Below are positions 13,365 through 64,000 of a stretch of 64,000 nt of DNA, piece by piece (the stretch's first letter is position 1; every line of letters starts with the position of its first letter). The notes beneath the pieces were generated by a model. The model was not told where the DNA came from, made no database searches, and was given only the letters and a program-made list of their open reading frames with translations. Source of the DNA: Protoeuglena noctilucae (Eukaryota); NCBI GenBank assembly GCA_958009085.1, contig OY253690.1:62001-126000 (forward strand), in the 5' to 3' direction. Position numbers and translations under genes: made by a program.

Positions 13365-13979
13365 GCTGGCTAGGTGCGGCGGCTGCGACTTTGGGTGTCC
13401 CAGGTGGTGGCAGCGGGTCGCACAATGGCTGGGGTGGGTAGCGGCTCATGTGGGATGGGTGCGATGGGCGGGTTTGGGGTATGGAGCTTTGGTAGGGTAG
13501 CGAGGAGGGAGAGGAGGCAGTAGGGCTGCAGCAGTCGCATGGCTGGACAGAGCTTTGGCTGTCGCTAAGCACCGTGTTTCTTATTCGTATCTAAATGCTT
13601 TGGTGAGCCAGGATCCCAAGTGTGCCGATTGGCGAGGCTCAGCAGTGCAGCAGCGCTCGCTGGCTTGTGCTCCCCGTCCCTTTCAAAAATCACCAGCAAA
13701 CTGATCGCGGTCTATAATCACCAGATATCATCACGGGTCACACACGTCACGTCAGAGAGAACGCGTCGAGCGTCCACGGCCTCACACACATATCCCGCCA
13801 TCCATCTTCACCCATAGTAGTACTATGTACAGCACCCAGCCCACCTCTCTCTACGCACGCTGAACCCTTGCTCTCCTTCACAAGCGCGCCCCGTCCACTT
13901 CCACCTCCACCGCCACCGTCTGCACCCCCCTATCACCCATTCCACCTCTCCCTACCCACGCTTAACCCCCCTTTTCATT

Positions 13980-16900
13980 TCATACGTGCACCGCATCCAC
14001 TTCCACCTCCACTGCCACCGTCTGCACCCCCCCGGTCCGTCCCGCCCCCGCCCCCGCCCCACCGCTCCCCGCACCCCTCAGCGCCAGAGTGTCAATTTCG
14101 ATCGCGTCCCATCGCATATCTAACGTGATCACCCCCCTTGGCACTTTCTGCAGGGGGAAGTCCCCCTGCAGCCTCCCCGACCGCGCCACCTGTGACACTG
14201 GGACCGACATTTCCCCGATGCTCTGCTGTAAAGGAGAGGTGAGCCGTATGATCTTGGTGAGTTTGGCCGTGATGCCGAGGTTCTTGTTCACCACCTCCAG
14301 GTGAAGCACGGCGCCCTCGGAGACGTGGGCGAAGGAGAAGCTCTCGTGGAACTGCGGGGATGGAGTGGGTCGATGTATTGCAACGATTGATTATTGCTAA
14401 ATAATTATCAATGGATAGTGTGTTGGAGACGTTTGCGAAGGAGAAGCTCTCACGGAACTGCGGGGGCAGGTGCCATGATGGGGCAAGGGTGGATCATTTC
14501 TATGGTGTATCTATTACAGTATCCATTCTAGCACAGTCACTTCATAAAACCAATCATTATTAGTACTATACTATACACGATAAAGCAATATCAACTAAAC
14601 ATAATCTCACCACCGGGTTGGCCGTGTCGACTTCCACCCGCGTCCTCTCCTCGAGGGGTCCCCTCTCCGGGTCCACCAATCGCAAACGCACCATGGGGTC
14701 CACGGAACGATTCAGGAGACCGGAACAACGTGTGACCTGGGGAGATCATGGGATATACATACATGTTGATAGCATGTAATAGTATATTACTATGATGACT
14801 GGGACAGACATCACACTGTCAGTTAGGCGCAGTCCGCCATGGTGCTTACACCAGCAGCTTCTGTCAGTACCACGAAATTACGCATTGTTCACAATTACAC
14901 CAAAACCACCACCCCATCCCCTAGTCTCTCTCCCTCACCTCCACATGCAGAATGCCCCGCCCCCTCAGCTCCGCAAACCCCGCATCGTCGCCTGACCCCA
15001 CGCCGTTCAACCGCGCACCCCCATGCACGCTCCCGGCTGCCTGCGCCTTTACATTCACCACTCCCTCTCGAGATGCCACCCCGCCCGCACCCGCACTGCC
15101 ACCTGCATCCCCACTGCTACCCACATTGCCACCCGCACTACCACCCGCACCCAAGCCCGCCGTGCCTCTGAGCCCCCCGGCCTTTTTCAGAGGCAGGTAC
15201 CGGACTTGGAAAAACTGCACAAGAGGAGCATGTCAAAAATTATTATAGTCAATATATGATATAATAGCATGCTGCATCTATATCTGCATGGTACACCACA
15301 TCTCCACACCACATCTCACGCAACACCTACCCTACCACCCCGTCTCACCAGCTGCGTCTGGTTGGCCAGAATATTCGGCAGGAAGCTCCTGCTCTTCTCG
15401 GGAGGACCATGCTTCCCATCCCCACTAACTACGCCCTCATCCCCCGGTCGCAACGGCGGTGGTGGTTGTTGTTGTTGCTGTGGTGGTGGTTGTGATGGTG
15501 CGTGAGGGTGGGGCGGGGTGTGCTTGGCTGTGGATGTCGCCGCACCCCCGCGCCACCGACGAGAGCCGCTGGGAGACAGGGCAAGGGTGAGCGACAGTGG
15601 AGAGGAATGACAATCAATGTATATACAGTTACTACCATTCGGTATACATAGTGGATGGTAATGTGGCACAGATGCACATCGTCACTTAATACGACATGAC
15701 TTAATATCATTCTCCCAACCCATCCCTCTCCCACTCCCCCCCTCACCCCACTGCCCATCACCCACCCCTCACTCATTTACACCAACCCTCTCCCATCCCC
15801 CCCCTCACCCCATCGCCGTTTCGTCGACCCACCGCCCCGGCTGCAAGATGGCGGGGTGGCTCTTGAGCGGCAGCGAGCACCGCGTGATGAGGCCGTCGCG
15901 AATCACACCGAAGTTGTCGTCCATCAGTTCCACCTGAAGGGAGAAAGGGATAGCGGTACATAGATGTTTATTATTATCATAATTATATTATTACATAATC
16001 ACAATAAAGATAATATTATAATAATAATGAATCAATTTTCATTTAAATACCATAATCATTATTTCCAATGCATAACACACGCTTGCCTCGAGCACGTCGT
16101 TGGTCAGGTCGTGCACGATGAGGTAGAAGTCCTCGTCCCAGGCCGGCGCAGTGGTCTTCGCCTTTGTAGACGACCTGCCCCTTGTGGCCCCGCTCACCGA
16201 CATCCGCACATATGGGTCGGGGATGTCGAGCCATCCCAGCGGATTGTACACGTGGGAGGCGCGGAGCACGCGGACCTGCACGAGGCCTGCGAGATATTAG
16301 AAGAGAGGGTTATATTATATTATATTATATTATATTATATTATATTATATTATATTATATTATATTATATTACCACCTCGTCGACCGTACCATACTCGTA
16401 CCTGCCACTATAAACACCAAACTCCCCCTGTTCTACCATTAAACCACCATTGTCTCAACTCACCCACGGGCGGCTGGTAGCTCCGGTCAAAGAGGGGCAC
16501 GTGCAGCGTCTGGGGGTAGAGGAGCATGCGAGACAGCACGGCGTCGACGATGCGTTTGATGGCATCTCCGATGAACGGAGTGGATATTAAATCAAAAGGC
16601 ACCCCCGGGATGCGGAGGGCGAAGTCGAGGGACGGGGGGGCGGGGAGTGTAAGGTCGACGGAGGCCACGCAGGGGAACTTGGGGGACCAACTGAGGGGGT
16701 GGGGTAAGGGATAGGGACACTGGGAATGTGTTATGATCACGCATTAACTAATACAGACCAGAGAGCTCAGTTGCACCTCACCGCACAAGCGCCCTCACAG
16801 TGCCCAGGAACACCACGTCTTGCACCTCGCACGGCACCCGCACCACGACCGCCCCCGCCACCGGGAAGCACAGCGCGGCGCGGAGTCGCGCGTTCGATCC

Positions 16901-18315
16901 CCACGCGACGGACATCTCCAAAGGCGTCACGTCCGCGTAAGGGCTCAGGACGCGGGCGCCCTGGACCCTGGGTGGTGCGGTGCCGAGGTCGGCGGCCTCG
17001 ATGACCAAAAGCGGGGCGGGGAGGCCCAGGGAGGCGAAGCGGGCGGCCAGGACGCGGTTCTGGGGGTGGATGAAGAGGGGTTGGGTGGGTAATGAGAAGG
17101 GGGGCAGAGGTACGGTGACTGCATACAGTCTATCAATCATTGTAATTAATCACTACTAGCACACCAAGCACACCATATTGATTTATATTGATACATCAAT
17201 GTCTCGCCAAGTAACAATGCCCCTCACGATGGTTGTCTCGACGTTTCGGTCTACGATGAGGTCGGCGGCGCGGTTGATGTGGGGCCATAGGATGTCGAGG
17301 GTCGTGGAGAGCCACTGGGAGCGCTCAAAATCGGGGGTGCGCAGGAAGGCGGGGACTGCATGGGGGGCGGGGCAGGGGGTGCTAGATAAGAAATGACGAC
17401 TGCAGGCAGGAGGATCGTTTGTCGCAATCACTGGGAGTGGTCAGATGTTATAGGGGGTGCGCAGGAAGGCGGGGACTGGAGAGGAGATGGGGAGGTGTGG
17501 CAGATTACAGGCAGGTTACAGATGCAATGGACAGGGTTGCTTGGTAGCACCATGGCAATCGAGATGGGTTGTGATGGCGACCCCTATACACCTGTACACC
17601 ATCCCCATTGCCCCTGTCGCATCCCCCGTCTCCTCCCCCGCTCACCCAGCTCGGGCCTCCTGGCCAGGTAGGTCCTCCCCACCCAGTTGAGCGCCGGCCT
17701 CCGCCAGAAACGCCGGGCGTCGTCGTTGGCGTCCAAACCGTCGAAGGAGGGCTCCAAAGCGAGCAGGAATCGCCACAGAAGATTCCCGATGAGGAATCCG
17801 ACGACGACGGCGGCGAGGGAGGCGACAAAGACACCGGACCCGGTACCACGCAACAGGCGGTACACGCGCGCTCCTTGCTCGGCCCACCCTGACGCCGCCT
17901 CCGTCCACGCGCGCTGCACCTCACGGCGCGCCACGGATAGCGCCTGCGTGATAGCGATTAAGGAGTGGGTATGGACGTCATTGGGACCTCAGAAAGCCTG
18001 TGTATTGTGTGATGCATCGCTGGCACTCCTCCACTAGCTATGGATAGCCAAAGTCGCAGGAAAGCAACGGCCCCTGCGCCACCGCAGCTCATCACTCGCC
18101 CGGTGGAAGAGGCGGAGGGCGACTCCGAGCCCCGGCGGGGCGTGGGCTTCGATCCACGCCAGCGCCGGGCGACCCACGGCATCGTAAAGCAACGACGCCC
18201 ATCGGGCCGCGACGCTGGCGATCGGGGCCAGGACGAGGTAAAGGAATCGAAATATCAATCGCGGGACGGTTAGGAGGAGGGAAATCGCGGCCCCGATGAG
18301 CCGCGCGAGGGCCAT
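13980..18315 (-). CDS. Synaptotagmin-like membrane tether (N-terminal hydrophobic segments, SMP domain, two C2 domains), multi-exon
   Basis: SMP start PDFERSQWLSTTLDILWPHI; C2 motifs PDPYVRMSV..TTAPAWDEDFYLIVHD and VDPMVRLRL..FHESFSF..LHLEVVNK. The exon junctions checked splice in frame, two via GC donors. Confidence 0.8.
16311..16372. repeat. (TATAT)12 microsatellite in an intron
   Basis: Read directly. Confidence 0.95.
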
Positions 18316-18963
18316 GGCGCAACGAGGGCGTTTCGTGCAAATTGATTGCAGCGCCGGGACGCCATCCGGGGGACGGAGTCTCGCATCAAAAGCGAGACGA
18401 TGTCAGCTACGTCAATACGGGGAGGGAAAGCAGAGGGACGAAGGAGGAGCAAGCGGGGCAAGCAAGACGGTGACTTGCACCACTGGGGTGCAAAACCACG
18501 GCTCCCTGGGGCCGCTACGCGGGAGAAACAGGGTCACGGTAGAGTGCGCAAAGCTGGCGATGATGGGGGAACCTCAACCGAGGCGAGGAAATTAAGGAAA
18601 GCAAGCCAGCGTTGCGCGCGCCAGACGCAGAGCGCCCGTTCGTGTCCGCGCCGTGGATGGGCCGACGCACGCTATACAGCGCATCCAGGAAGCTAACATA
18701 CTACGTCTGCCTAGTGTAAACTTTAGCTAGCTGCGCCTGCCCCCTCCTGCCGACGCTCGCTTTCACACGAAAAGCTTGCTGCGAGCCTTTAGCCGTGAAT
18801 CCCGGCTCGCCAGCTGTTTGCTCGATTTCTCCTGGTCAACGCATCCGCGCACCCACGTGCGTCACCGCGGGAACCTTCGGGCTGCCGTGTTCAGGGGTGG
18901 CGAATCGAGCGGGCGGCCTCGCCGGGGGTCCTTGCGGACCGGAGCGAGGGTCGCGGTGCAGCG

Positions 18964-20544: not shown

Positions 20545-20774
20545 CGGAGCGAGCGTGATTCTGGCGCCAGGCCCGCACGCTGGAAGTCTATATAGCGACT
20601 CCACTCACTGCAAATGCTAGTACGTACCCCGAGCGAGGTTGTGACGGGTTCATCGCGCCGCGGCGCGCCCATCTGCGCCGTAGCAAAGTTGCAATGCCCG
20701 TGCGCGGAATCGACGGACCTTCTTGACCTTAGCATCCTGTCGAGCTGTGAAACAGTTGCGTGTCGTTCGCGCCC

Positions 20775-23146: not shown

Positions 23147-23251
23147 GATGAAGAACGGGTCACGCTCATTTCTCAATTCACCTCACAGCCACTCCGTGAC
23201 TAATATCCCCAGCCACGTCACAGCCACCCCATGACTACTTGTCGACCCCCT

Positions 23252-26200
23252 TCACAGCCACTCCATGACTATTTCCAGCACGTCCAGCGTCTCGATGTCC
23301 GCCTGGCACCCCAGCAGTGTCCCTACGCTGGGCTCGGTGCGGCCCCCGTCCCCGTGCACAAACTCCTTCACATAAGTGCCCGCGCTGGTCAGCAGGGCCA
23401 AAGCGATCGCATCGTCGCTGCCGGGCACGCGCTGGGGGAGGGGTGTGGGGGTACAGGGTGAGTAACAATGCGGGGTGGGCTGGGGCTGGTGGGCGGGTGT
23501 GAGGGATGGCATCGTTAGTGCTGGGGGTCGCGCATGGATCGCAAAGCAATGACCATCATGCGCTTTGTTAATGGACTGCTCACGGCACGGTCCACATCAA
23601 CCAACCCACCCATCTCATGCACTCTTCTCACCTCAACTGCCCCTCACCTCTGCCGCCATCTCACGCACTGCTTTCTCATCTAAACTGTCCCTCACCTCTG
23701 CCGCCATCTCGTGCACCGTCTTGTCCCTCACGAGGTCGGCGCGGCGGTGGCTGACGCGGACGGGCGTGCGCTGGTGCAGCGTCAGGTCCCGCAGACCCGA
23801 CAACAGCGCCAGGTCGGCATCCGTCTGTGTAGCAGGTGTGTGCGTGGAGGCAGGTCAGATTGTAAATAACGTCATCTCTTGCCAAGAGATGTGTGGTGAG
23901 AACGTGAGGTACAGAAATAGGGACCGTGGAAGCTAGCATCGTTATCGATATCGCCACCACCTCCCTGGCCTGCTTGCCACCCTTGCTGACACTCAGCCGC
24001 ACCGTCACATATCACCACATCCCCACTACCACCCCCATCCCCTTCCCTCCTCACCACAGCCCGGCTCAGTCGCACGGTCGCCAAGTACCGCTTCTGTTTG
24101 TCCTCCTCCCCCTCTTTCAGCATCCTCAGCTCCCCCGGCCCCACCAGCCGCAACCCCCGAGCCTCCACGCCCCCATATGTGTCGGGATCCGCCCTCAACG
24201 CTGCCTCTATCGCAGCCAGGTCGACGCGGTCCGGCCTGGCGACATGCGGGTTGGGCAGCTCGAGCACGAACGGGCGCCCCTTGCCCAGCATGCGAACATC
24301 CACGTCCTCGCGGCCCGCCGAGATCATCTTGTGGCCCTGGGGGGGGGTGAGAATACTAGAATTGAGTTGTAGTTGCTGGTACGAATCATGTGACATATGG
24401 GTCCGCGGTGATCATCTTGTGGCCCTGGGGAGGGTGAGGGTGACGGTGGGGAGTCGTTGTTGTCAGTACGATTCATGTGACGCATGGGGCCAATCAGTTG
24501 GTGCGCCTTGGTTGGCGAGCGATGGTACCGGTTGGTCGCTGTCTAACCCCTTCCCATGCAATGCATTGCCCCTCTTCCACTTACCTCCGCCTTCATTGCC
24601 GCCTGCACCAGGTCCCCGATCGCATCCCATGCATCCACCAAGCCTACTTATTACACAACACATAACACCCCTCTCTCACACACCTCTGCCTTCATCGCCG
24701 CCTGCACCAGGTCCCCGATCGCCTCCTGCACCGATGTGGTGCCCTGCCGCTCTCCGTCCACAAAGAAAGGCGAGTTGCTCACCCCACGCCGCGTCTTCAA
24801 ATAGTACCCGCCAATGAGGACAGGGTCACGCCAGGGACACGTGAGCACCTGGGAGGTGACAGGGAGGGTGGCAGAGGGGGTGGCAGGGAAGGTGGCAGGG
24901 AAGGTGGGGGTGGCAGTGAGGGGTCGAGATGAGCGTCCCCGAGCCCCAAAGATCATCAGCCATTCCCTGACACACACCTGAACAGGAGTGTCGGGTCTAT
25001 ACAAGGGCATGCCCATCTTGGCGTCCCTCAGCGCCCCCTCCCCCATCGTCGCCGCGTGGCTCAGTGCCTTGTTCGACAGAGGCAGGCTCAATTCCTCTGG
25101 CTGAGACAGCTCACGGAAGGTGCCGTCGCGGCGGCGCTTGCGGCTGCAAGGAGAGACGTGGGCGAAGTGTGCAAGTGGGGGGGGTCGAGGGTGGGTGACG
25201 GTGGCGGTGGCAGTGGCGGTGCCTGTGGCGCTGTCAAGATAGAGGGTGGGCGCATGTATAATGAAGATAAGCTAGTCATGCTGACTGAGCCAGTAAGGAT
25301 GCCTGCCTGATATCGGTGCCAATGGCGGGTCAGCGTATTGGCGTTCCCATGCCCCGCCACCCGCATCAATCAACCAGGCAGTCGCCTGACCCTCTCACCC
25401 GACGGTGGGCTTGATGGGCAGGTGCCGGGCCTCCCTGGCGGTCCCCCGGTGGGCGCAGTAGACGGACAGTCGGAGGGAGCTGGACGCCACGATGGGCTTG
25501 CCCACACGCTCCTGCAGGGGAGCCTCCATGGCCGCCCGCCACGCATCGCGCACGTCTGCGGCCATGCATGCGGCTTGAGGGTGGACGAGGCGATACGCGA
25601 TGATCGCGGCGTGGGGAGCGCAGTGCTCATGTAGGCCAACAGCTTATCGACGTATCATGACTATATCATGAGTATATCGTGAGCATATCATGAGTATAGC
25701 ATGAGTATATCATGGCTCGTGGCACGCGCTGCCGTGTGACGCCAAACCCCACATCTACTTTCGCCCAGCACAGCCATCGTGACGCTCACTGGCCATGGTC
25801 TCCCTTGCTGTGCAGGCCCTCACCTGTGATGCCCGCCATGGCGACGCGGTATCGCGAGAAGGTGGACCGCAGGTGCGACAGGACGCCTGCCTGACGCAGC
25901 GCCACTTGGGCAGGAACGTTCAGGTCCAGGCTGTGGGGGCGGGAGTTACGAGGGGGAGTGTGAGCATGCGGTCGCAGTGGTGCTGCTACTTGTGTCGAGT
26001 GACGCAAAGCTATCAGGTCACGCTCAGTCGCGCTGAGCAAACGCTGTGTTCTAATACAGCAAACACCATACACTCCGTGCACCACACCTGAAGACCTCCA
26101 CCTCGTGCCACTCAGCAACCACTGTGTTATCTCATGTTAATATAGCAATGTGCGCCACACCTGAAGTCCTCCACCTCGTGCCCCGATGCCGCCAGCTGTG

Positions 26201-27230
26201 TTATAGCAGAGCAGTGCCCTACTTTAGCAGTGTTTTGATAAAGCAGTGTTGTAGTAACGCAAAGCACATCGCGTCACCTGAAGTCCTCCACCTCGTGCCC
26301 CGACGCCGCCAGCGCCGCTGCGATGTCCGAGGGGGCGCCCCCGGCCGCCAGCCGCCACCGACGCTTCTCCATCCCCGGGGACTCGGCCACGTCCTCCCCT
26401 ATCACATCTGCGGGTGTGCTACTATTTGCAGATATACAAAGACCTTGACATGAATAACTGAAGAATGTCTTATGTAACCTAACCTTCCCATCCAATGGTC
26501 GACCAGCACTGAACAGACAAATGCCTTATGCGAGCAATTGGTCGACAGCTGCCATCGCTCGCTCACCCTTCCCCTTGCCGTTGTACCTCAGCCCCTCCGC
26601 CGTCCCCTCCTCCACCAGCTGCAACACGCCCAGGCAGACCACGCACACGCCTCCGGGTGTGTGGGGGGGGCTTGGGGCTGTGGCGGGTGCTGGTGTTGTG
26701 TCATTCGCTGGTGCTGTGTCAGGTGCTGCAGCGGTGTCCGGTGCTGGTGACTTGTCGATTGCTGGTCCTGTATCGGTTGCTCGTGACTTGTCCATCGCTG
26801 GCATCGCATCGGGTGCTGGTGCTGTATCAGTCGCAGGTGTTTTGTCGATCGCTGGTGTTGCCTCGGTTGCTGGCAGTGGCGGTGCAGGCAGGGCGTCCAG
26901 CGCACTGACGGCGGTGGGTGGAGGGGCGCGGTACGCGGCCGCATCCGACACGCCCACGAGGCGCAGGGCGCAGCGAGGACAGCAGCCCTGCGGGTGAACA
27001 TGGATAACATGGATTTCTTAGCGACATCCCCGGGCCTGCAATGCTGGCCCAAGCGTTGGCACGGACGGTCGTTCCATTACCATCGAACGCCTCTTTGCGT
27101 GCACCATTGTACAACCGTTCACCTGCGCGATCGCCTCCCTGGCCACGGGCAGCAGGTCCGCGGCGCGGTCCCCGAGCGGGCGAGAGAAGTACGCCAACGC
27201 GGGAGGAGGGTCGTCGCCCACCGTGCCCAT
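23252..27230 (-). CDS. PUS10: tRNA pseudouridine synthase Pus10
   Basis: CCPRC..CVVCLG zinc site, GGYYLKTRRGVSNSPF, catalytic-region SAGREDVDVRMLGKGRPFVLE, QRTPVRVSHRR, AGTYVKEFVHGDGGRTEPS..LDVLEI. Confidence 0.93.
25654..25713. repeat. Intronic about 12-bp tandem repeat (TATCATGAGTAT-like, about 5 copies)
   Basis: Read directly. Confidence 0.8.
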
Positions 27231-27949: not shown

Positions 27950-28472
27950 AAGGACTGACATGCAATGTTCCCACCCCAAACTTTGGCGAGCGATGCCGTA
28001 CGTGCACGTGCAGGCGTGGGCGGCGGACGTGTGGGAAGCCGAGTCCAAGGCCGACATCCAGTGCATGGGCAGCGAGCACCTTGGGGCGGCTTGCGGCACT
28101 AGCGCCCCCACAACTGACTGACTCTCCTTCAACAAGGCCCACAGCTAAGGTCGCAGACCTATCTCTTGCCACTCTTGCCCCCTCCCTTTCCCTAAACCCT
28201 CGCCGGCAGCGGTGGGGGGAGAAGGTGGAAAGGCGCGGCAGCCTCCCCACAATGCAGCCAGGCAAGTCAAGCGAGCTACAAGTCAGGCGGGCTGAAGGTC
28301 CCACGGCGCAGTTCAGCAAAGGGTTATGACGACCCCGTCGCGGCGTGGATGGCACGCATGACCGCGTCATCCCTGTCGCGAGCAGCGAGCACGGCAGTCA
28401 CGCCCGCCCTAGCCCCCGCCGCCAGCGCAGCCTCAAGCTCCCCCTCGGTGGTCGGCGGGGCGTCGGGCCAGC

Positions 28473-29036
28473 TCACCAGTAGCAGGGACGGGTGGGGCGC
28501 CCTTCCTTCTCGAGAAGGGGCGCGCTGGCAAGGGGCGGGCAGTTATGTCCCTGTTGGGGAGTGTGGTGGCGGAGGTTCCACTGCGCCGCTAGCGCAGAAA
28601 CCTCCGCCACCACATCCTTGAACATGGACAAAAACACCGCCCGCCCCTTGCCTGTGCGCCCCTTCTCGAGTAAAACGGCCCACCCGCCCTTGCTGCTGGC
28701 GAGCTGGACCGATGCGTCGCCTTCCTCGCTTTCAGGGACTTCAATTGCTGACGCCAGGTTTGAGCCATGCTTTTCATCGTCGAGAGCAAAACGGGGAGCA
28801 TTAGACGGCCAGTGGTGGGCAAGTTCATCGTTGGCGTATGTGCCCGCCGCCGGCCTGCTGACGCTCCCCTCCTCGCACTCCACCACGAAAGGCATGGCTC
28901 GAACCACGCACTTGCCCCCCTCCACCTCCACCTCCATCACCACCACCACCCCCGCTCCATCCACCTCCCTAGGGAACTCCCCGCCACCCTTCACCTCGCA
29001 GAAAAACACCTGCCCTCCCAGCACGACATACCGCAC
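28473..29036 (-). other. Orphan ORF or gene fragment of unknown function
   Basis: 187-aa ORF with globular, beta-strand-like composition and G-ending codons; no recognised motif. Confidence 0.3.
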
Positions 29037-50358: not shown

Positions 50359-53300
50359 ATGGCCAAGCTTGCGTTCAAACACGCGTCCTTTGAGGGGCGC
50401 CACATTGGCGACAATGAGCTCCGGGCCATCGAGGTGGGCGGCCGCGCAGCGCTGCGGCGCGGGCGGATGCACGGGCCGAACTGTCGGCCGAGCTAGTTGT
50501 CACGCTCGCCCGGCGCCCCCTGCCCGCCCGCAGGAGTGCGACCTGGTGCTCGCGGAAATAGGGCACACGGAGCCCATCTACGAGGCCGCTCGGAGGTGCG
50601 CGGCGTTCGCCGTCGCTGCGGCGCGCGGGTTGTTTGCAGAAACAGCTGGGAAGGAACTGCGGGCCCCCTTTGACGCCCTTCCCGCTTGTTTTCCGGACCC
50701 CGCAGGATCAAGACGCAGATCTTGGGCGAGGCCGGGTGGTTCCATCTGAACCTGGGCAACCTGGACCTCGGGGACAAGGGCGCGGTGCAGGTGGCGCGCA
50801 TCCTCACGCACTCCCCGCACATGGGTGAGCGAGAGCTTATGTGGGGCTTGAGGGTTGGGAGATGATGGGGACTTTGATTGCTTTCAGTAACCGCCAACAG
50901 CAACAGCACCCTTAACACCAGGGGCGGCCTTGCGCATCGCCTGTGAGAGTGTGACATGGTTTTGATGTCATCTGCTTTCCAATCGCCCGCAGTCAAGAAG
51001 GTCATGATGGAGGGCAACAAGATCGGTCCCGAGGGCGCCAAGGCCATGGCGCGGATGCTGGTGCACAACAAGGACATGATCGTGCTGGTCATGCAGTCCA
51101 ACGAGGTGAGTGAGTGAGTGATGGGTACCAGCAAGGGTGCTGGTGCACAACAAGGACGTGATTTACAACGTGCAATATGGCACCATCATCACCCGTCACC
51201 AACCAGGCCAAGCAAAGCACCTCTAGCCACCACCACCCCCTACCTCACCCCCCCTGCCCACTCACCCCTGCCCCTGCCCTCACGCCACCCCCACCGCCAC
51301 CCCCATCACCACCCCTACTGCCGCCCCCGCTGCCACCCCCACCGCCACCCCCACTGCCACCCCTATCACCACCCCCACTGCTACCCCCATCGCCACCCCC
51401 ACTTCCACCCCACTCACCCCCTTCACAGGTAATGGACGAGGGCGCGGCTGCCATCGCCGAATCCCTCCACGTCAACGCCTCCCTCGAGATCCTCGGCCTC
51501 CACACCAACTTCCTCACCGACAAGGCCGGGATCGCGTTGGGCGACATGCTGGCACACAACCGCAAGCTGCGCGTGCTGTCGATCAACCACAACGCGATCG
51601 GGGACGAGGGGGCGAAAGCACTGGGGGAGGGACTGAAGCATAATGCGAACCTGGAGGGTCTGTCGTTCAGTTTCAATTGCGTGACGGACGCGGGGGCGGT
51701 GGCGTTGGCTGAGGCGCTGCCACACAACAAGAAGCTGAGGCACCTGTGAGTGGGAGGGAGAGGGGGTGTTAGTAGTTGAGGCACCTGTGAGTGAAAATGA
51801 GGCTGGGGTGTTGAGAGCTGTGGCACCTGTGAGTGGGTGGTTTCGTAGTGGTGGAGGGCTAGGTGGCGGGGGAGAGCGGGGAGCAGTGGGCGTGTCAGAG
51901 GGCTGGTTTTGATGCCCACATCTTTCTCACTCCTTAACCCCCACCCCTCGCTCTCAGTTGGGTGAACGGCAACCCGGTGGGCCAGGAGGGCCTGGAGGCA
52001 CTGGACTGCCACGTGCGGTGCAACCGCACCATCCAGCAGATACGGCTCACGCTGCACGGTGAGTGGTGGATGGATACGGATAGATAGAGAGGGATAGAGA
52101 GAGAGTGTGTGTTTGGTAAGTACGGCAGTCGATTGTCACACTCACTCCCTCACCCACTCATCACTCCTCCCACTCACCATGACCACACTCACCCCCACCC
52201 CGTCACCCCACCCAGGCTACGACCAGTACCGAGAGATGGTCGACGACAGCACTCACCCAACGACACTAATTACACCATCTCACTCACTCTCCCCCATCCC
52301 CCATCCCCAGGCTACGACCAGTACCGAGAGATGGTGGACGAGAGCGCCGGCACGGGCTTCCAGGCGCTGGGCACCGGGCCCCACCGGACCAGCGTGGAGT
52401 ATCGCAAGGACGTCCCCTACGCCCCCAAACTGCCAGAGATGGCTGTTTCAAACGACTCGGTGCGGCCGAGCGTGGAGGCGGCGTCGGGGCTGTTCACGCC
52501 CAGCCGGGGGCTCAGCGGGGAGGGGCAGAGGGAGGGGCAGGCGGAGGCGGTGCGGTGAGTGGTGTTGCTTTTGTTGAGTAGAGGGATGGGGGTGGTAGTG
52601 ATAGATAGTGATAGATGGGGCAGAGGGAGGGGCAGTGCGGTGAGTGAGGGGTGGGGGGTGGGGTTGAGAGGTGGTGATGCGGCGTGGTGGTGGTGGTGGC
52701 GTGCTGTAGTGGTGACGTGTTGGTTCACCCTTATGTATCCTCACCAACCCCACCCCTTCTCACCCCCACCCCCAGTGCCCTCTTCAAGCCCGACAGCGCC
52801 CACCCAACCTACCGCTCTTGTCACCCCCAGTGCCCTCTTAAACTCACACCCACCCCTGTCCCTTACCCCTCCTCACCCCCAGTGCCCTCTTCAAGACCGA
52901 CAGCGCCATCTCCCAGGCATGGTCAGCTGTCCCCGGTAACACCCACAGCCACAGCACCGCCCACCCCAACCCCAACCCCTACTATGACGCATCCACTGCC
53001 GCCTCCGCCACCCTCACTAGCGGTGCTACCCGCACCAGTGGTGGTGCTGGCGCGAGCACGGGCGCTAGCATGAGCGCTGCAGGTGCGGGTGTGGGTGCGG
53101 GTGCGGGTGCAGGTGCGGGTGCGGGTGTGGGTGTGGCAGCCATGGGCAGCAGCGGTGGGGGTGGTAGCGGTGTGGGTGGCGTGGCGAAGGGTGCGGTGGG
53201 TGGTAAGGTGGAGGTGGTGGGCGAGGTGGATGAGGGGCGGGACGAGGATGGGTTTGCGGATGCGCGATCAGATGTGGGATTGGGGGAGTTGGAGGGAGAT

Positions 53301-54077
53301 GAGGAGGGGGAGGAGAGGGAGGGGACCGAGTCGGAGCGGTACACGCCCATGGTGAGAGACGATTGGTTATGAATGTATTGGGTTGTATATGAGTTGGATA
53401 TATATGAGTTATATATGGGATGTGAGGGAGGGGACGGAGTCAGAGCGGTACACGCCCATGGTGAGACATCGATGGGTTTGCTATAAGATATGAATTGGTT
53501 GTTGTAAATGAGTTATATATGAGTTGTATATGAGATGCATCGGATGTGGGGTGAGAGTCGGGGCTGTACACGCCCATTGTGAGATGATCATGAGACGGGA
53601 GATGATATGTGGATGGACAGGATAAATATATCGGTTAGCAATTCATACAGCCTCCATCCATGCTCACCACCTTAGCGACTCCCGCATCTGGCAGACCCAC
53701 ACCCACACTGTCACCCACTCACTAGCCATCACTATCACTCACTCACTCACTATCTCTTATTCATTTCTCTCCTTCATTCCCCTTATCCACAGGTCCCTAA
53801 CGACTCCCGCATCTGGCAGGCCCACACCGGGGCCTGGGGAGCGGGTGCCCAGCGGGCCATCCACACCGCAACCCGCGCCTCTGATGTCGGTGCCACACCC
53901 ACCCCCCTCCACCCCGCCCCGCACCCCCGCTTCAGCCCTAGGGGCCCTTTGGGAGGTTTCCGGGAGAGCTTGGATGCTCGCGCGAGGAGCAAGGGCGTGT
54001 CGCTGGATGTGGGGGGGCAGAGGGACAGGCGCATCACGGTGGACTTTGGGGGTCCGCCGCCCAGGGCGATCAAGTGA
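50359..54077 (+). CDS. Ribonuclease-inhibitor-type (28-aa) leucine-rich repeat protein with a low-complexity C-terminus
   Basis: Repeats NKIGPEGAKAMARML, LRVLSINHNAIGDEGAKALGEGL, FNCVTDAGAVALAEAL. Eight exons splice in frame; ends PPRAIK-TGA. Confidence 0.85.
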
Positions 54078-55893: not shown

Positions 55894-58800
55894 TCACGCG
55901 TCTTCCGTGAACGAGGGGGCCTGGTTGCTAAAGATCTGGGGGGGTGGGGAAGGGGGTGGGGTGAAGCGAGGGAGAGCGGTGATGGGGTGAGTTTACGAGT
56001 AATTTGAAACATCAATTTGAAGCATACTCACAATAATCCCATCTCCCATACCAGTCCCCAATCACTCGTCTCATCCGCCAAGCTCCCCTCGATTGCCAGC
56101 CACCGCGCGTGCTCCCTCACCCACACCCACAGCCACGCTCACTTCACGTGTTGCTAACAACAGCCCCTCTCAATCACTATAGACACGAGTAACCTATCAC
56201 TCGCCTCATCCGCCAAGCTCCCCTCGATTGCCAGCCACCGCGCGTGCTCCCTCACCCACACCCACAGCCACGCTCACTTCACGTGTTGCTAACAACAGCC
56301 CCTCTCAATCACTATAGACACGAGTAACCTATCACTCGCCTCATCCGCCAAGCTCCCCTCGATTGCCAGCCACCCTGCGTGCTCCCTTAACACCGCCTCC
56401 CTCGCCGCCCCCATCACCGCCGCCGCCCGCTCCAGCGACCCCCCCGCCCCCGGCAGCCGCGTATTCGATCCCTTTCTGTCCTTTTTGTCCCTTTCACCGG
56501 CGAGGATCGAAGCCCGCGCCTGGGCCAGGGCGGTGGCGGCGCGGCGCTCCAAGGCGGCAAAGGCGGACGACGCCTGAGATGGGGTGGCCTGGGGTGGAAA
56601 AGTGGTTTTCTCAGAAAAAAAGGTAAATGATAGGTAAATGGGAGGGTGAGGGGCATGGGAGTGAGTGCAAGTGAGAGGGCAGCGAGAGCGGGTGACGACT
56701 GCGACGGGGTGGCCTGGGGGTATGGAAAGGGAGAGGGGCATAATCGAAGTGACTGTAAGTTACAGTAACAGTAAGCACGGGAGTAAGAGAGAGGGGTTGG
56801 TGTGTGCGGGACAGTGCTGTCTCACCCCACCCCCCCATCGCATCTCACCCCCCTCACCCTCACTGCCCACCCCACCCCACCCCACCCCACCCCTCACCCT
56901 CTCCATCGCCCGTCGCAACTCCTCATCCATCTCCACGAAATCCCTCGCCACTTTTCTCGCCGTGATGGTCGCGCACGCCAGTTGCTTTGCCCTACGCCGT
57001 ATCTCGTGCGCCCGGTGCTTGGGGGGGAGCTTGGAGAGAGATGGCTGGGATGGGGGGGAGGAGTGGGGGAGATATAAAACGTTTTTGATTGGTTAATTAG
57101 GTCATGTAGTAGTTCATGTGTGACTATATTTATCGCATGTTGTTATTTATGGTAATAGATGGCATGGTATCGCCCTGACTGTGGCCCAATCACTACATGT
57201 AAGTATAATCATCATAATAATAAATCATTATCACTTAATCGCATTCCCCAATCCAATTCGCTCACCGCGATGCCTGGGTCGCTCATCACGGCGGCCTCGG
57301 ATGAGGCGTACAAGTCACGCAGCCACGCCACGACCTGTGGGGCAGGGTTAGAGAGGTGGTAAATGAGAGTCGAAGATACGTGGTAGGGACAGAGAGGTGG
57401 TGGATGTTAGTTGGCGATATGTGAGCGTAGTGAGTGTGGCATACACGTCACGCAGCCACGCCACCACCTGAATGGGGGGTGAGGGGGGGGGGGGTGGGGA
57501 GTAGAGAGTTAGCGATATGTGAGTGTAGTTATTACAAATTATATGAATAAGATCACAGTTGGTGATAAAGTCGCACCCTCTCCCACTCCCTCCCACTCTC
57601 ACTATCACCACCCCCCCCTCCCCCCACCCCCCTCCCCACCCAACTCACCCGCACCCTCGCCGCGCCCCTCTCCTCCCCGCTCCCCGCCTCCGCCCATTCT
57701 TTGACAGAGTCCGCATCCATGAGCATCGCCTCACACAGAGTCGCCTCGTCCTCCACAGCGATACGGGCGATGTGGTCGCGGAGACACAGGGCCTGGGGGG
57801 GGTTAAAGGGGAAGTTGTTCGTAGTAGTTAATGGAAGTGATTGCGGCACTGTTATGGTGCATCGGTAATACAGTTGAATATAGTAAGCAGCATCTTCCAC
57901 GGCAATGCGGGCGATGTGGTCGCGCAGGCACAGGGACTGGGGGGGAAGGGGAATGCGAGCAGTTATGCTGTTGATGTGGTGTGTGGACATGTATTGATAA
58001 AAGCGGCCTATATTAGTAGCATAATCACTACCAAAATCAGTATCCCCATTCCCACGCACCAGCGCTTCCCTGCGCATCTCCCTCTGTGTCTCTGACACCC
58101 ATCACCATCACCATGACAATTACCATTCATTCTCTCAGTAACTATCAATATCACTCTTCCAATTATTGCTAACCACTCACCAGTGCTTCCCTGTGCAATT
58201 CTCTCTGCGTCTCTGACGCCCATCACCATCACCACCCTCACCATCACCCCCACTCTCACTATCACCATCACCATCACTCTCTTACTCTCAGTCACTCTTT
58301 TAGTACTTATTAATACTAACCACTCACCAGCGCCTCCCTGTGCAATTCTCTCTGCGTCTCTGATACCCTCTCCTGCCCCCTGGCCGGGTCCCTCCGGAAC
58401 GCCACGCTGCCCTCCACCTCCCCCAATGCTCTGTTTAAATCCGATTCCGCCCTCGCCCACAGATCCGCGTGAAGCGACGCGCGGGTGGGGGGGTCGGACC
58501 AACTCAGGCGCAACTGCGGTGGGTGCGTGGGGGTGGGTGGCAATGGGTGAGTGAAGAGAGCAAGGTACGTTGACGTTGAATATGAATACAGCGACTGATG
58601 ATAACACCACATATACAAAATAGTTTATACACTACACATGCCATCTACATCTCTAAACCCCATCCCCACCCCACTCCTCTCGCCTGCGTGACGGGGTCGC
58701 TCGCCACGTACCGCCGCACCAGCCCCTCCACCATCAGAGCACGAACCGCCCCGGCCAGCGCCTCCGCATCCATCCTCGCCAAAGCACGTTCCCCGCACCC

Positions 58801-61800
58801 CTGGGCCACCAGCGACCGCACCCCCGCGCCCTGGGCCGCCCGCACCCTCGCCGCCTCCGCCACCGCCCCCGCCTCCGCCAAACGTGCTTTGCACCACTCC
58901 TCGCGAATGGCCGGATCGGGGGACGCGGCCGCCTCTCTCGCGCCACGTTCCCAGTCCGGATCGCGCTCCACGATCGCCACCAGCACCCGCACTGCCAGGG
59001 GCCGCTGCGATACTGGCACCGATACTAGCGCCGATATTGGCACCGATACTGGCGACGAGTCAGGCCGGGGGGAGTCGAACAGCCACAGGGCCAGGGCGCC
59101 CGCGGGGAGCGAAGACGGGTCGGTGATGTTACCGAGACCGTTGCCAGGAACGGTAGTGGTGATAATAGCTGGTGTAGTAGCAGTGTCCTCTACGATCGTG
59201 TTTGGGGATGCGAGGGTCATGGACGGACCCGCTTCACCATCGCTCGAATTAATACTGACATTGGCATTGGCATTGGCATGGGTATTGGCATTGGTGTTAC
59301 CATTCCCAGCTGTGTTGAAGACAGCGGGGGTGTCACCCACCCCGCTCGCACCCCCCGCATCGCCCACCCCACCGCCACCACCACCCCCACCCCCGCTCTC
59401 CCCACCACCCCCACCCCCACCACCCCCCCTTCTGTGCATTGTGCTTGTGGACAGGACAAAACGAGCCGCGATGTTGTTGGCGCGGGACGACGCCTGCGCG
59501 AACACCCTGGGCCTGCCGCCATTGTCGTCGGTGCCAGTTTTGGTGCCAGTGTTGGTGTCAGGTTGCGGTGCCAGTGTGGCTGTTTCACGGGGGGGTGCCT
59601 GGATGAAGCCCTTGCCGCCGATCTCCTCCCTGCGATTGCGATGGTGGAGTGGTGGAGATGGTATCACAATTTAGAGATGATCTGCTTTTCGCTTTGCAAT
59701 TGAGAGCGTGTACCACCACCACTCCACTCCCCCCTCTTTCGCCAACTCTCACCTCCTGCTCTCCTCTTGCTTGATCGCATAGTACATCGTCCGATACTGG
59801 TCGTCCTGCACATCCCCCGCCGCCCCCGACGCCCCCCTCGCCAGCACCGCCCCCAACGCAATCACCGCGTGCTCCGCTAACACCGCATATAACAGCATTT
59901 GCGTTTCCGACGACACCCCAAGGGATCGTAGCACGACGCGCGCGGCCATAGCACGATCGCCCGGACCGTACCCCTGGGTCGTTAAGGTGTAATTGGTGAC
60001 GGGGATATAAGTAAAGAACATAATGGCGAAGTTGGTGAGGACTGCCAACGCGCAGACGGCCCCGAAGCAGGCGTGCCAAAGACCGATGGTGCGGATGCCG
60101 CTGCGATTGGGGGGGTGGGGGGGGCTGATTGTGAAGGGGTGGGTGAGCATGGGGGAGAGTGGTTGTGAGTGAGTGAGTGAGGGCGATGGTGTGGATGCCG
60201 CTGCGATTGGGGGAGGGGGTGGTGGGAGGGTTGAGGTGGCATAGTGGGCGCCAGCTCGACTGCTGTGCATAGCATAGTGTGCAATCTGTTATTCGAGTTA
60301 CACTTATACAACCATCCCCCTTTCTATCAGCCTCACCTGGGTGCCGCCATGCGGCTGTACCGGACCAGCTTGGCGGCGTCGATCCGTATCTCCAGCACGT
60401 TATTCGCCAAACACAGAATAGGCGCCAGTGGGAACACGACCACGAACATCGCGAGCCACGAGAACTGGATGATGAGCTCCAGGTACTCAGTGCTGAGGTC
60501 TTGGGGCTCGGACCGCTTGCGCTGGGAGACCAGGCTGGGGGGGGGGGGGGTAAGTAGTGTTGATTTTTGTGTTGCAGTGGGTGGGAGTAGAGGGATGAGT
60601 GGGGTTAGTAGAGAAGTGGGGTGGTGGTGGGGTGGATCAACGCTCTTGCGCTGGGGGACAAGTCTGGGGGGGTTACAAGGGGGGGGCTGGTGTGTTCTTA
60701 GTAGTAGTGTAAGTGTGGAGTGGGGTGTGGGGTAGCGATGGGGTGGGGAGGGGCGAGGTTGGGGCATGCTTGCACTGAGAGACCAGGCTTGGGGTTGGGG
60801 GGGGGGAAGGGGCGAGTGGGATGAGGTGGAGTGGGAGTGGGGTGAGGGGCTGGGGTTCGATAGGTTAGAGGGGTGAGTGGGAGTGGGCGGTGGGGTTGGT
60901 AAAATACATGGAATGGCGGTTCTACATGAATATGCTTGATATACACTAATACTCCCTTGCCTGTACCAGTAGGTCCTGTTCCAGCACCAGTTGTACGAGG
61001 GGTGCATGAGTGTTATCAGATATAGGCAACACATCTAATTCACATCCAATCTATTAATATTCGAATCTCTCACCTGTACCAGTAGGTCCTGTTCCAGGAG
61101 TAGTTGTGCGCGGGGTGCAGGCACAGCAAATCCCTGTATGCCTGACTCTCATCCATATCGATCAGCGATCCCTCCGGATAAACGTTATCCAGAAATAAAG
61201 GCTGCTTGTGGTTGCTGGAGCGGGCGCGGGTGAGGGCGTGGGACAGGAGGCGGGAAAAGGTGGGGTAGGCAAGGGAGAGGGGGCTGCCGCGGTCGCCCCT
61301 GCGTTGCATATTAGAGGGGTGGGAATTTAAATTTTAAAATTTGAAATTGTAATCGAAAAGTATCATTGGCTGAGGCAAAGAGTATCGATTGTAATGTGGG
61401 GTAGGAGAGATGAGAGAGGGCGCTGTTACGGACGCCCCTCCATCACCTCAACACCCCTTCACCTCTCCACCACCACTCACATCACCCCCACCCCCCTCAC
61501 CTCGGCTCCATCATCACCCCCAACACCCCCTCCGCCCTCCTCTGCGTCATCTCCCTGACTGTCGGATTCCTGGCCCATTCCACCGCCATCCGAGCCGCCG
61601 CGTGAAACACACGGCCGCCCTCACGAGACGCGTGGTTGCCCAGGACCTGTGAGTGTGTGTGTGGGGGGGGAAATTTGAAAGTGAATGAGCAATGGATAGT
61701 AGCATGTGTACTATCCATTCCTAAACGCGGTAATTTAATCAGCACCCTTGCAAGAAGCGGGGTTGCCAAGGACCTGTGAGGGGGGGGGGGAGGAAGATTT

Positions 61801-64000
61801 GAATTATATAAGCGATCGATGTCAGTATGTGACAATGTTTGTCTACGTAGCACCTATCCCACACACCACCCCCCCACCACTTGCCACCCCACCACCCCCA
61901 TCACAGACTCCCCCCTGCCCTCATCCCAACTCACCACCTGCCACCCCAGCCTCCGGAACTCCGCCCGCGTGTCCCTCGCCGCCCTCTCAACCGCCGCATC
62001 GCGGGACGGCGACGACGATAGCACAGACGACCACGACCCTTCCCCACGCAACGCCGACGGCCGCAGCAGCTCCGGGGCCAGCAAAAGGTCCGCCGGGTCG
62101 CGGTACTCCGCCCCGGGATTCGATCCGCGACCGCTCGGGGTGCCGGGGGAAACGGGGGGAGGTGCACCAGCGGGTGCGCCGGAACGTGCTGTGGCTGCAC
62201 CGGAACGTGCTGTGAGCGAGTGGGGGCGCGTGGGGGTGACACGTGCTTCGGAGGATCTCAGAGAGAGACTTTGCAGATCTGTGCGATGACGATCGCGGTC
62301 GTTTGCGGTGGTCCGTCGCAGCTGCATGCGCGCTGCTTGCGCTTGGGCCGCGTAGGTGAGACGTCGGTACAGAGCCATTCCCCACGGCAGTCCGATCTCT
62401 TTCATCTGATTGAGGACTTGGCCGGTCAGGAGCAGGGAGATGATCTGGGTCTGTGGGGGAGGGGGAAGGGGGGGTGGGGGTTGAGTAGGTGGGGGGAGAG
62501 TAACTGTGTAGTGAGGAGCAGGGAGATGATCATTGGCACCAGTCGATTATACAGTACTATTTACAGTGACCTAGTGCGCTACGCTCCACCACCAACACAG
62601 CCACCCAACCCCCCGTCCCCACCCCCATCCCCCTCCCCCTCCCCAATGACCCTCTCTCGCCTGCAGCTGCGCCCAGTCCTTTCGTATGAACGCGATGTAG
62701 AAGAGCGATATATTGGCGTTGAAGGTGAAGAACACGAACAGCCGCGTGGCCATGGCGTTGGTGAGGGAAGTGTCAGTGCGGTGCATCTCCCAGTCAGCAA
62801 GGCGGGACGAGGCCCAGACGTACGCGGACTGCGATTGGAAATGGGTTACAAATCATGAATATATGTAATGTAATATATGATATTATAGTATTTATGATAT
62901 GTTGCATCTCCCAGTCGGCAAGGCGGGACGAGGCCCAGACGTACGCGGACTGCGAGTTGTATGAAAAGAGGGATATGTTTTCAGTAAACATGTAGATATA
63001 GATATGTTATACATACAGACATATGCGATGGGACGAGGCCCAGACGTACGCCGACTGAGACGCAACAAGGTGACGGTGGACGAGATGCACCTGTACTACT
63101 ATCAGATACGAATCACATTGTCGTTATGAGTATTCTGAATCCAAAGCACATGTTCACCTGCGATACCGGGATGATAAGCCCGTTCAGCACCCCCGTCACG
63201 GTGCATGCGATGCAGCTATGCTACTGTTTCACCGATACTAATATTAAAACTACTATTGCTCAATATAAATCATATTCACCTGCGACACGGGTATGATGAG
63301 CCCGTTCAGCACCCCCGTGACCGTGGATGCGATGCGGGCGGCAGTGGCGGTGGTGACGGACCCGGGGGACCACAGAGTGGCGCCGAACAGGGAGCCGTCT
63401 CGCAAGTTGCTCTCGATCGTCTGCGTTGATTAGGGAGAGATAATGGTTAAGTGTTTGTTACTTTATCTATAAAGTTGCTCTCGATGGTCTGCGAATAGTT
63501 AGCCACGGCTGTTACCGCCGCCACTCAATCATTAACTCTGATCAAAGTACTTTAACTCAGTGTAACCACTATTCCTCGCCTGCAGCAGTATCATGATCCC
63601 CAGCGACGCGAGGCAGGACACGGCCAGCAGCGCCACGGATGCACTGGCACGCAATGTGCGCTGGAATGATGGGATGTAGTAGACGTCGCCATATGCGGCG
63701 AGGTCGGCCCTGCATGTGATAGGGGTGTGGTTATTAGTATTAATAGTGTGTTTTGTTAATATTGGCAGTCGTATACTAGTAATTAAAACGATAAACCCCA
63801 CTCCCACCAACAACCCCCCCTTCACTGGGGACTCCCCATACACACCTGATCTGCCTCTCCCTCGCCACCGCGTCCCTCCCCTTCATGTTCAGATTCAAAG
63901 CCTCGAACATCCACGCCATCACGCGGCGCTGCTTTCTGGCGTCCGCGCTGCTCAGCTGATCATCAATGCGAGCCACGAACTCTGGCCGCACCGATTGGGA
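55894..64000 (-). CDS. Anoctamin/TMEM16-family channel or scramblase with a long C-terminal extension; 5' end is off the window
   Basis: LADWEMHRT..RLFVFFTFNANISLFYIAF, QVLNQMKEIGLPW, EYLELIIQFSWLAMFVVVFPLAPILCLANNVLEIRIDAAKL, IGLW..LAVLTN, EH motif. Downstream exons continue in frame to PSFTEDA-TGA. Confidence 0.88.
56061..56390. repeat. 135-bp near-perfect tandem repeat spanning an exon end and donor site
   Basis: Unit starts ATCACTCG at 56061, 56196 and 56331. Confidence 0.95.

Follow-up and report, generated by a model that had tools for sequence, protein, structure and literature searches.

Local direct copies of exon edges and splice sites in the introns of a 64-kb window of Protoeuglena noctilucae

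Introduction

The closest described counterpart of the arrangement reported here is the minisatellite in intron 7 of the human F7 gene, a 37-bp variable-number tandem repeat whose first unit spans the boundary between exon 7 and intron 7 (PMC1557585). According to that report, the downstream donors, though identical and competent, remain silent, as the choice falls on the most upstream site (PMC1557585). In this study we analysed 64,000 nucleotides of Protoeuglena noctilucae DNA (GCA_958009085.1, contig OY253690.1, positions 62,001 to 126,000 of the forward strand; this whole stretch is referred to as the window, and positions follow its own numbering), in which short copies of exon edges together with their splice sites recur in the adjoining introns. 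We call these copies echoes. As at F7, the copies are direct and lie at short spacing (64 direct versus 5 inverted repeats in the window, most spacings falling around a peak of 80-150 bp), and each unit reaches across the edge of the exon, with the splice site repeated in the intron (29 of 64 repeat segments; 24 of 142 predicted edges). However, F7 as portrayed in that account is one locus, where the 37-bp units are identical and confined to the donor side, whereas the window contains 24 such edges in 64 kb and on both sides of introns. Its units, unlike those of F7, measure 41-147 bp, the copies have diverged, and only the exon-derived part is recognisable.

[quoted passage not shown] As outlined in that source, a short intragenic tandem duplication is tolerated there too, with the spliceosome removing the extra copy via the duplicated signals. 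In the AGGT model, as set out in the same outline (PMC3443670), a new intron arises inside an exon between the two AGGT copies, whereas in the window pre-existing introns are lengthened by duplicates that include intron sequence. Intron birth by duplication of such a segment was rejected for the window, since donor echoes copy the end of the upstream exon and acceptor echoes the start of the downstream exon, and both stay on their respective sides of the intron. Work by Gao and Lynch in 2009 reportedly also dealt with intron gain through tandem duplication.

Introners and transposon-derived introns, as summarised in PMC9860276, are likewise a large-scale source of added gene sequence that leaves the message intact; in the window, by contrast, no element family common to the introns was found (three matches of 18-19 nt among 71 introns), and every echo copies its own neighbouring exon. 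The window spacings of 41-147 bp also differ from those of NAGNAG-type tandem splice sites, which lie a few bases apart. Tandem duplications of the flap or slippage type are flanked by short repeats, and reversible microhomology-mediated tandem duplications occur in yeasts. The echoes resemble both in their size (tens of bp to about 150 bp), in their direct orientation and in forming arrays that expand and collapse, but, unlike in the flap or slippage type, microhomology at the unit ends could not be shown in the old copies of the window. To our knowledge, the fixation of such duplications in introns at this density has not been described, and our literature search, which was mostly at abstract level, found no description of exon-edge copies in introns at this density. 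What differs from the known cases is the density (17% of the window's edges), the involvement of both splice sides, the multi-copy arrays, the unit size of 41-147 bp and the selective survival of the exon-derived part.

Results

An earlier note on this window had described exon edges recurring on the intron side in five long-intron genes, and the check that it proposed, an alignment of exon edges with the adjacent intron, was run here within the window. At a score threshold of at least 16, 24 of the 142 predicted edges (17%) were echo-positive, versus 0 of 1420 when the probes were compared with other introns, 0 of 142 with reversed probes and 1 of 142 with reverse-complemented probes. The positive edges were 13 acceptors and 11 donors; they belonged to five genes, with a concentration in the anoctamin and LRR genes, and six introns were echoed at both ends (hand count from the edge-test list). 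The gene models that supplied the edges were ad hoc predictions, obtained from codon log-odds, splice-site weight matrices and exon chaining, and repeats were ignored in making them.

Local alignment re-found all 34 real/echo pairs (26 'real' positions) of the earlier list at their places, the weakest being 20/21, 21/22 and 21/23 identical and the strongest 106/108. A scan that was blind to this list (ungapped direct repeats, spacing 15-600, score at least 18) detected 79 segments, 69 of them with a spacing below 150, at essentially the same loci. Under stricter settings (spacing 30-400, score at least 15, simple sequence removed), the window contained 64 direct-repeat segments versus 0 in each of five local dinucleotide-type shuffles. 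The same scoring gave five local inverted repeats in the window, and the stricter scan of 589 kb of unrelated metagenome loci yielded seven segments. For 29 of the 64 segments, one copy coincided with a splice edge that had been predicted independently, and its partner lay in the intron next to it. A further five segments were echo-to-echo pairs, five were situated at an edge missed by the gene model (PUS10 26278) or just inside an exon edge, and five at the ends of coding regions; there were also 10 coding repeats (4 uncertain) and 10 other intron-internal repeats, three of which stood in an acceptor-like array. The observation of exon-edge echoes is confirmed as real and far beyond chance.

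The window is GC-rich (0.56-0.69 per 2-kb bin) and densely packed with eukaryotic intron-bearing genes. The five genes that carry echoes were assigned by Pfam on open frames and single predicted exons:

14-18.3 kb, minus strand: C2-domain (synaptotagmin-like) gene
23.2-26.4 kb, minus strand: PUS10 gene
35.2-37.8 kb, plus strand: DUF2358/SOUL gene
50.3-54.1 kb, plus strand: LRR_6 protein gene
about 55.9-64 kb, minus strand: anoctamin gene

Pfam coordinates support the gene models across the junctions of PUS10, anoctamin and SOUL only. In PUS10 the Pus10_C coordinates run on across the exons (2-44, 48-135, 138-182 and 182-231). In the anoctamin gene the segments 323-373 and 381-446 of the Pfam Anoctamin domain are contiguous, and the gap from 229 to 323 is occupied by exons of 48 and 46 amino acids; the SOUL coordinates 21-70, 85-126 and 131-171 are continuous. 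The continuity of reading frame and Pfam coordinates suggests that the outermost splice sites are used and that the inner copies would be silent.

The echoes are, as the earlier note had described, local direct copies of an exon edge with its splice site on the intron side, and they always lie on the intron side of the frame-keeping site. Primary echoes stand 41-147 bp from the real site, and their spacings peak at 80-150 bp; larger values belong to second copies. Similarity is highest at the junction and decays outward, a claim of the earlier note that holds over 30 echo copies: on the exon side the first 15 bases match at an identity of 0.91, and similarity has dropped to background at about 45-50 bases; on the intron side the first 5 bases match at 0.89, with background attained at about 20-25. 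The decoy splice sites said to be left behind are indeed present, with motifs near full strength as judged by position weight matrix (PWM). The mean PWM scores of real and echo sites are 7.4 versus 6.1 for donors and 10.1 versus 8.5 for acceptors, and the dinucleotide is kept in 13 of 14 donor echoes (GT or GC) and in 15 of 16 acceptor echoes (AG). The altered sites are one donor changed from GT to GC, one donor changed from GC to AC and one acceptor without AG. GC-type donors are also predicted among the real sites, at 56340 (GCGAGT) and 62661 (GCGAGA); the first set of gene models had predicted GC donors at 26 of 104 sites, many of these predictions being spurious.

The spacings showed no enrichment for multiples of three (11 of 32, hand count). 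Coding use of the echoes was rejected on this ground and because a 135-nt unit in the anoctamin gene is closed in all three frames.

The individual loci are given below. The likeness of spacers, i.e., of the intron part between copies, is expressed as score z-values with empirical backgrounds; these replaced the identity under lenient gaps, which was dropped (shuffled sequences reached about 0.73). Periods and copy numbers marked TRF are from Tandem Repeats Finder.

14319-14465, minus: C2 gene, acceptor 14351 with an echo 106 bp upstream, 37/41 identical; edge independently predicted; 8-nt common acceptor motif
17313-17478, minus: C2 gene, acceptor 17355 with an echo 120 bp upstream, 26/26 identical ungapped and 42/50 gapped; no spacer similarity (z 0.4)
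23625-23716, minus: PUS10, true donor 23697 with an in-frame, open echo donor at 23648, 48 bp downstream, 39/44 identical; Pus10_C coordinates favour the upstream donor
24312-24438, minus: PUS10, acceptor 24336 with an echo 88 bp upstream, 29/32 identical; spacer alike (z 12.9); Pus10_C 2-44 and 48-135 contiguous over the intron
24569-24730, minus: PUS10, donor 24684 with an echo 99 bp downstream, 52/59 identical; spacer unlike (z 1.6)
26085-26313, minus: PUS10, donor 26278 with echoes 117 and 190 bp downstream, 38/39 and 24/25 identical; the gene model wrongly ended here
36154-36330, plus: DUF2358/SOUL, donor 36174 with an echo 105 bp downstream, 28/29 identical; G-rich spacer alike (z 12.1)
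36734-36885, plus: SOUL, donor 36748 with equal-strength donors at +57 and +124, PWM 9.6 for all three; 30/35 identical
36925-37446, plus: SOUL, at least five acceptor-like units (pyrimidine tract, CAG, CTTTG-like start) before the real acceptor 37433
51056-51162, plus: LRR, 25-nt piece located 25 nt within the end of the exon (donor 51105), with a copy in the intron 82 bp downstream, 24/25 identical; edge score 22
51730-51840, plus: LRR, donor 51745 with echoes at +41 and +83, 21/23 and 23/25 identical; TRF period 42, 2.5 copies
52175-52345, plus: LRR, acceptor 52311 with an echo 95 bp upstream, 38/40 identical
52522-52666, plus: LRR, donor 52554 with an echo about 85-95 bp downstream, 19/19 identical ungapped and 40/50 gapped; edge score 19
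52749-52907, plus: LRR, acceptor 52883 with echoes at -52 and -107, 19/19 and 33/34 identical; TRF period 52, 2.6 copies
53308-53584, plus: LRR, donor 53351 with echoes at +109 and +227, 46/50 and 27/30 identical; spacer alignable with many indels (50/55 aligned columns)
53670-53828, plus: LRR, exon start 53793 with a copy 125 bp upstream that lost or never had the AG, 27/28 identical; acceptor PWM 1.1 versus 11.0 for the real site
56050-56387, minus: anoctamin, GC-type donor 56340 within a 135-nt array of 2.4 copies (TRF and alignment)
57302-57477, minus: anoctamin, acceptor 57334 with an echo 133 bp upstream, 30/33 identical
57749-57953, minus: anoctamin, acceptor 57792 with an echo 144 bp upstream, 44/50 identical; 5 of 6 exon differences at codon position 3
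58052-58368, minus: anoctamin, donor 58328 with echoes at -147 and -268, 51/55 and 41/49 identical
60084-60234, minus: anoctamin, acceptor 60100 with an echo 100 bp upstream, 29/30 identical; Pfam Anoctamin 323-373 and 381-446 contiguous over the intron
60515-60809, minus: anoctamin, acceptor 60534 with echoes at +129 and +253, 25/28 and 31/36 identical
60960-61119, minus: anoctamin, donor 61074 with an echo 113 bp downstream, changed from GT to GC, 42/47 identical; spacer unlike (z -0.5)
61618-61803, minus: anoctamin, acceptor 61646 with an echo 127 bp upstream, 25/28 identical ungapped and 49/63 gapped
62425-62531, minus: direct repeat 86 bp apart within a 1014-nt anoctamin intron, 20/21 identical
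62782-63060, minus: anoctamin, acceptor 62828 with echoes at +121 and +226, 52/53 and 27/28 identical; AT-rich spacers faintly alike
63149-63335, minus: anoctamin, donor 63280 with an echo 122 bp downstream, 57/65 identical; 6 of 7 exon differences at codon position 3
63404-63493, minus: anoctamin, acceptor 63420 with an echo 68 bp upstream, 21/22 identical

The SOUL acceptor-like units score 7.3-9.9 by PWM versus 15.4 for the real site, and two of them are 28/28 identical at a distance of 92 bp; intron 36749-37432 carries three donors of equal score together with at least five such units. In PUS10 the earlier note had taken 23696 as real and 23647 as the echo. This assignment was right, and it was the gene finder that had been misled by the in-frame echo donor. 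If the echo donor at 23648 were used, 16 open codons would be inserted in frame.

The pair 62430/62516, listed earlier as a further exon edge, is a true repeat (20/21), but the Pfam coordinates leave no room for an exon there, the gap from 229 to 323 being already filled; the repeat is probably intron-internal. The intron that contains it (61647-62660) is unusually long (1014 nt), with a GC content of 0.64 and long open frames on both strands. The Pfam coordinates leave no anoctamin exon missing, and something other than an anoctamin exon may lie within this intron.

Echoes lengthen introns, as had been proposed. The median length of introns with echoes is 337.5 nt and falls to 139.5 nt for the intron core, i.e., after the removal of echoes and spacers; the median of echo-free introns (up to 700 nt) is 171 nt. 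None of the 34 edges of introns below 150 nt had an echo; the count was 3 of 42 edges for introns of 150-250 nt, 9 of 30 for those of 250-400 nt and 11 of 22 for those of 400-700 nt. In intron 62829-63279 the innermost donor and acceptor copies bracket a compact stretch of 103 nt with an ordinary pyrimidine-rich tail. The echo units appear to account for the excess intron length in several genes. Spacers were the most AT-rich part, with a GC content of 0.454; echo blocks stood at 0.619, intron cores at 0.528 and introns free of echoes at 0.568.

The same pattern was found at the coding ends of two genes:

13833-14032, minus: C2 gene, 102-nt unit spanning the stop codon and duplicated into the 3' untranslated region, with blocks of 36/37 and 30/35 around a diverged patch
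23179-23276, minus: PUS10, stop codon within a 34-nt array of 2.9 copies (TRF), with blocks of 19/20 identical each and spacers unlike

In the 3' untranslated region of PUS10 the last approximately 20 coding bases and the TGA recur twice in these 34-nt units. At both stop codons the coding-derived block is well preserved and the spacer poorly. The occurrence of this pattern at stop codons implies that the duplication process is not specific to splicing.

The complete unit is visible in the anoctamin array at 56061-56387. Copies 1 and 2 of the 135-nt unit are identical at 106 of 108 positions including the spacer (98-99%), and copy 3, which ends at the donor, is older (61/68, 90%). The re-duplication of the unit at 98-99% over an older copy at 90% implies that arrays still expand, and unequal exchange between the exon edge and an older echo would give the structure observed. 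The tandem origin put forward in the earlier note is supported only in part: by the full unit in this array and by spacers that are significantly alike in 10 of 22 pairs, but not by the remaining 12 pairs, in which the spacer shows no significant likeness. When compared with unrelated spacers, the intron part of the unit topped all controls in 9 of 20 pairs and came within one of the top in 11. The youngest-looking echoes were often the worst for spacer likeness.

The differences between exons and their echoes were distributed over codon positions 1, 2 and 3 as 14, 14 and 43 (71 in total), i.e., 5.8% per site at positions 1-2 versus 17.6% at position 3 (P = 2.4e-6 when compared with an even distribution and P = 0.048 when compared with one half). 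This bias implies that a large share of the change fell on silent sites of the parent exon and that the echo changed no faster. The copies are old enough for silent-site drift in the parent exons.

Discussion

Short local tandem duplications, 41-147 bp in length and reaching across the boundary from coding into non-coding sequence, probably gave rise to the echoes. A duplication that starts in an exon and ends in the adjoining intron or 3' untranslated region would place a second exon end, with its splice site, in the non-coding side. The message would stay intact as long as the outermost site is used, so that such an event would be tolerated, and wholly exonic duplications would be purged by selection. 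The human F7 minisatellite is a precedent for identical downstream donors that remain silent (PMC1557585). Since the ancestral introns, at about 90-170 nt, would not have exceeded the unit in length, the majority of tolerated events affecting an intron would span a junction. A geometry calculation from the observed unit sizes and pre-echo intron lengths gave an expectation that 59% of message-sparing duplications would straddle one junction, and thus the bias toward junctions needs little special targeting. Repeated rounds, together with unequal exchange between copies, could then build arrays of 2-6 look-alike splice sites and double or triple the length of the intron. Afterwards the intron-derived part would decay fast and the exon-derived part would stay near its parent. 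Replication slippage or flap-type tandem duplication may be the underlying mechanism, and as the cause of the uneven decay we prefer occasional copying from the parent exon into the echo.

Several observations weigh against this account. About 24 junction loci stand against 5-6 intron-internal ones (hand count), which is somewhat above 59%, the excess being roughly estimated, and the sharp ceiling of primary spacings at 147 bp is beyond what tolerance alone explains. In 12 of 22 pairs the intron part shows no significant likeness, despite an identity of 85-100% in the exon part; an example is 62828, where 46 of 47 exon-part positions agree and the AT-rich spacers are barely alignable. When pooled, the exon parts are identical at 601 of 657 positions (91.5%) versus 1039 of 1485 aligned columns in spacers, a measure in which shuffled spacers already reach about 0.6. 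Neutral decay of tandem duplicates allows at most an approximately two-fold gap in divergence between exon and intron parts, which implies that the simple model is incomplete. Finally, the finding is based on one 64-kb window, ad hoc gene models and genomic sequence.

The better preservation of the exon part points to exchange with the parent exon, to constraint on the echo or to an origin by patch copying. The earlier note had proposed that recombination could swap an echo in as the real exon edge; the better preservation is compatible with exchange between exon and echo but is no proof of such a swap. Three readings of the uneven decay are considered. In the first, a parent exon now and then overwrites its echoes; in the second, intron sequence of low complexity is replaced much more rapidly than sequence derived from exons; and in the third many echoes were patch copies from the start. 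The first combined with the second is favoured, given that traces of homology persist in roughly half of the spacers and that direct repeats outnumber inverted ones by 64 to 5.

Patch copying is the strongest of the alternatives, albeit an unlikely one. It supposes a template switch at a short match (a splice-like motif or a run of C or G) during the repair or replication of an intron, by which 17-57 nt of exon edge and a few intron bases are inserted about 40-150 bp away, so that the spacers would never have been homologous. The 12 of 22 pairs lacking spacer likeness fit this view, and in most echoes the intron-side likeness extends over just 3-18 nt, reaching background by about 20-25 nt. 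Among 11 hand-picked young echoes, with an exon part at least 95% identical, most had no continuing spacer likeness (17355, 26278, 62828, 53793, 63420), and echoes of one edge can be nested, sharing their junction end but differing in length, as at 62828 (31 and 53 nt). However, in comparison with unrelated spacers, 9-11 of 20 spacer pairs, including those at 62828 and 63280, take the highest or next-highest rank, and the youngest array is a duplicate of the full unit. The stop-codon cases have no splice motif that could anchor a switch. Moreover, repair by template switching usually leaves inverted copies too, whereas these are few in the window (5 local inverted versus 64 direct).

It is quite improbable that selection keeps the echoes as working decoys or splicing-control elements that hold back splicing, promote intron retention or buffer the choice of site. 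The near-real strength of the echo motifs, with 13 of 14 donor echoes retaining GT or GC and 15 of 16 acceptor echoes retaining AG, would suit such a role, as would the clustering of echoes in few genes and the low rate of change of exon-derived blocks at former codon positions 1-2 (5.8%, versus 17.6% at silent sites and far more in spacers). The retention of the dinucleotides is, however, about what a block identity of 90% leads one to expect, and spacings in multiples of three are no commoner than chance (the 11 of 32 counted by hand). One echo has lost its AG, others have weakened donors, and the same blocks follow stop codons, where a splice function is inapplicable. An assembly artefact, in which allelic or erroneous read pieces were falsely duplicated side by side, could be suspected for the one array that is 98-99% identical over 135 nt but is extremely improbable as a general cause, with a pattern seen at 24 edges in five genes, with copies that differ by 2-22%, mostly at codon position 3 (43 of 71), and that are short (17-65 nt), unlike in the spacers between them and always placed so as to spare the frame.

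Two further origins were rejected. A mobile-element origin of the spacers was rejected on cross-intron comparison, which gave only three matches, of 18-19 nt, among 71 introns. If whole introns had been duplicated, a donor echo should come immediately after an acceptor echo, but the opposite order is observed.

Short local duplication across the coding border could also be part of a wider process, which we consider conceivable but rather doubtful: exon edges and their intronic copies may form small families in ongoing exchange, in which the parent overwrites its echoes and occasionally receives sequence from them, and introns would grow by a junction-seeded minisatellite process whose unit size has its upper limit near 147 bp, like that of a nucleosome core or an Okazaki fragment. 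Such exchange would explain why exon-derived islands persist at 90-100% identity amid a decaying unit. If this were true, the evolution of intron size and the splice-site decoys would be a direct read-out of one peculiarity of replication or repair.

The lengthening of introns is usually put down to transposons and slow drift, whereas here one short-range duplication process appears responsible for most of the excess in several genes. If the pattern is genome-wide, it would offer a natural experiment on a spliceosome that ignores dozens of competent decoys, and a dated series of duplications in which intron decay can be measured and the exchange between exon and echo tested. It is also a warning for gene prediction, as an ab initio finder picked the in-frame echo donor in PUS10.

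Other features of the window

Besides the five echo-bearing genes, Pfam identified two GT61 genes, two beta-helix/kinase genes and genes for ankyrin, WD40, PIG-U, EMC6 and cytochrome b5 proteins. Screening of open frames by GC content at third codon positions (GC3) gave no separation of exons. One anoctamin exon had a fragmentary database match at 72% identity. For a WD40 exon the best database match was 58% identical; the best named matches were at about 40%, with the green alga Haematococcus at the top, followed by several blastocladian and chytrid fungi and, lower, by the green algae Monoraphidium and Sanguina. A metagenome scan with an anoctamin exon found no relative. The scan with a PUS10 exon gave 80 loci, none of them close (they either matched the full exon at 35-47% identity or were short stretches from AT-rich contigs), and these loci were used solely as a method baseline for the repeat counts.

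Two pairs of paralogs stand in opposite orientation and suggest an old inverted segmental duplication:

7232-10822, plus, and 43376-45648, minus: kinase and beta-helix genes
41851-43077, plus, and 47650-48951, minus: GT61 glycosyltransferase genes

The 144-nt repeats at 43.5-44.1 kb were rejected as echoes, as they are coding beta-helix repeats. They form a tandem repeat at 43548-44081 (minus strand) in the beta-helix domain of the beta-helix/kinase gene, with a unit of 144 nt, or 48 codons, at 78-82% identity; this size is near the upper limit of the echo units. An intron-internal minisatellite at 41339-41496, with 3.3 copies of a 47-nt unit, is unrelated to any exon edge, and an intron of the C2 gene contains a perfect (TTATA) run of 12.6 copies at 16310-16372. 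A palindrome of about 250 nt at 28463-28712 consists of nested inverted repeats, with arms at 28463-28496/28679-28712 and 28509-28540/28639-28670, which belong to the only five local inverted repeats of the window.

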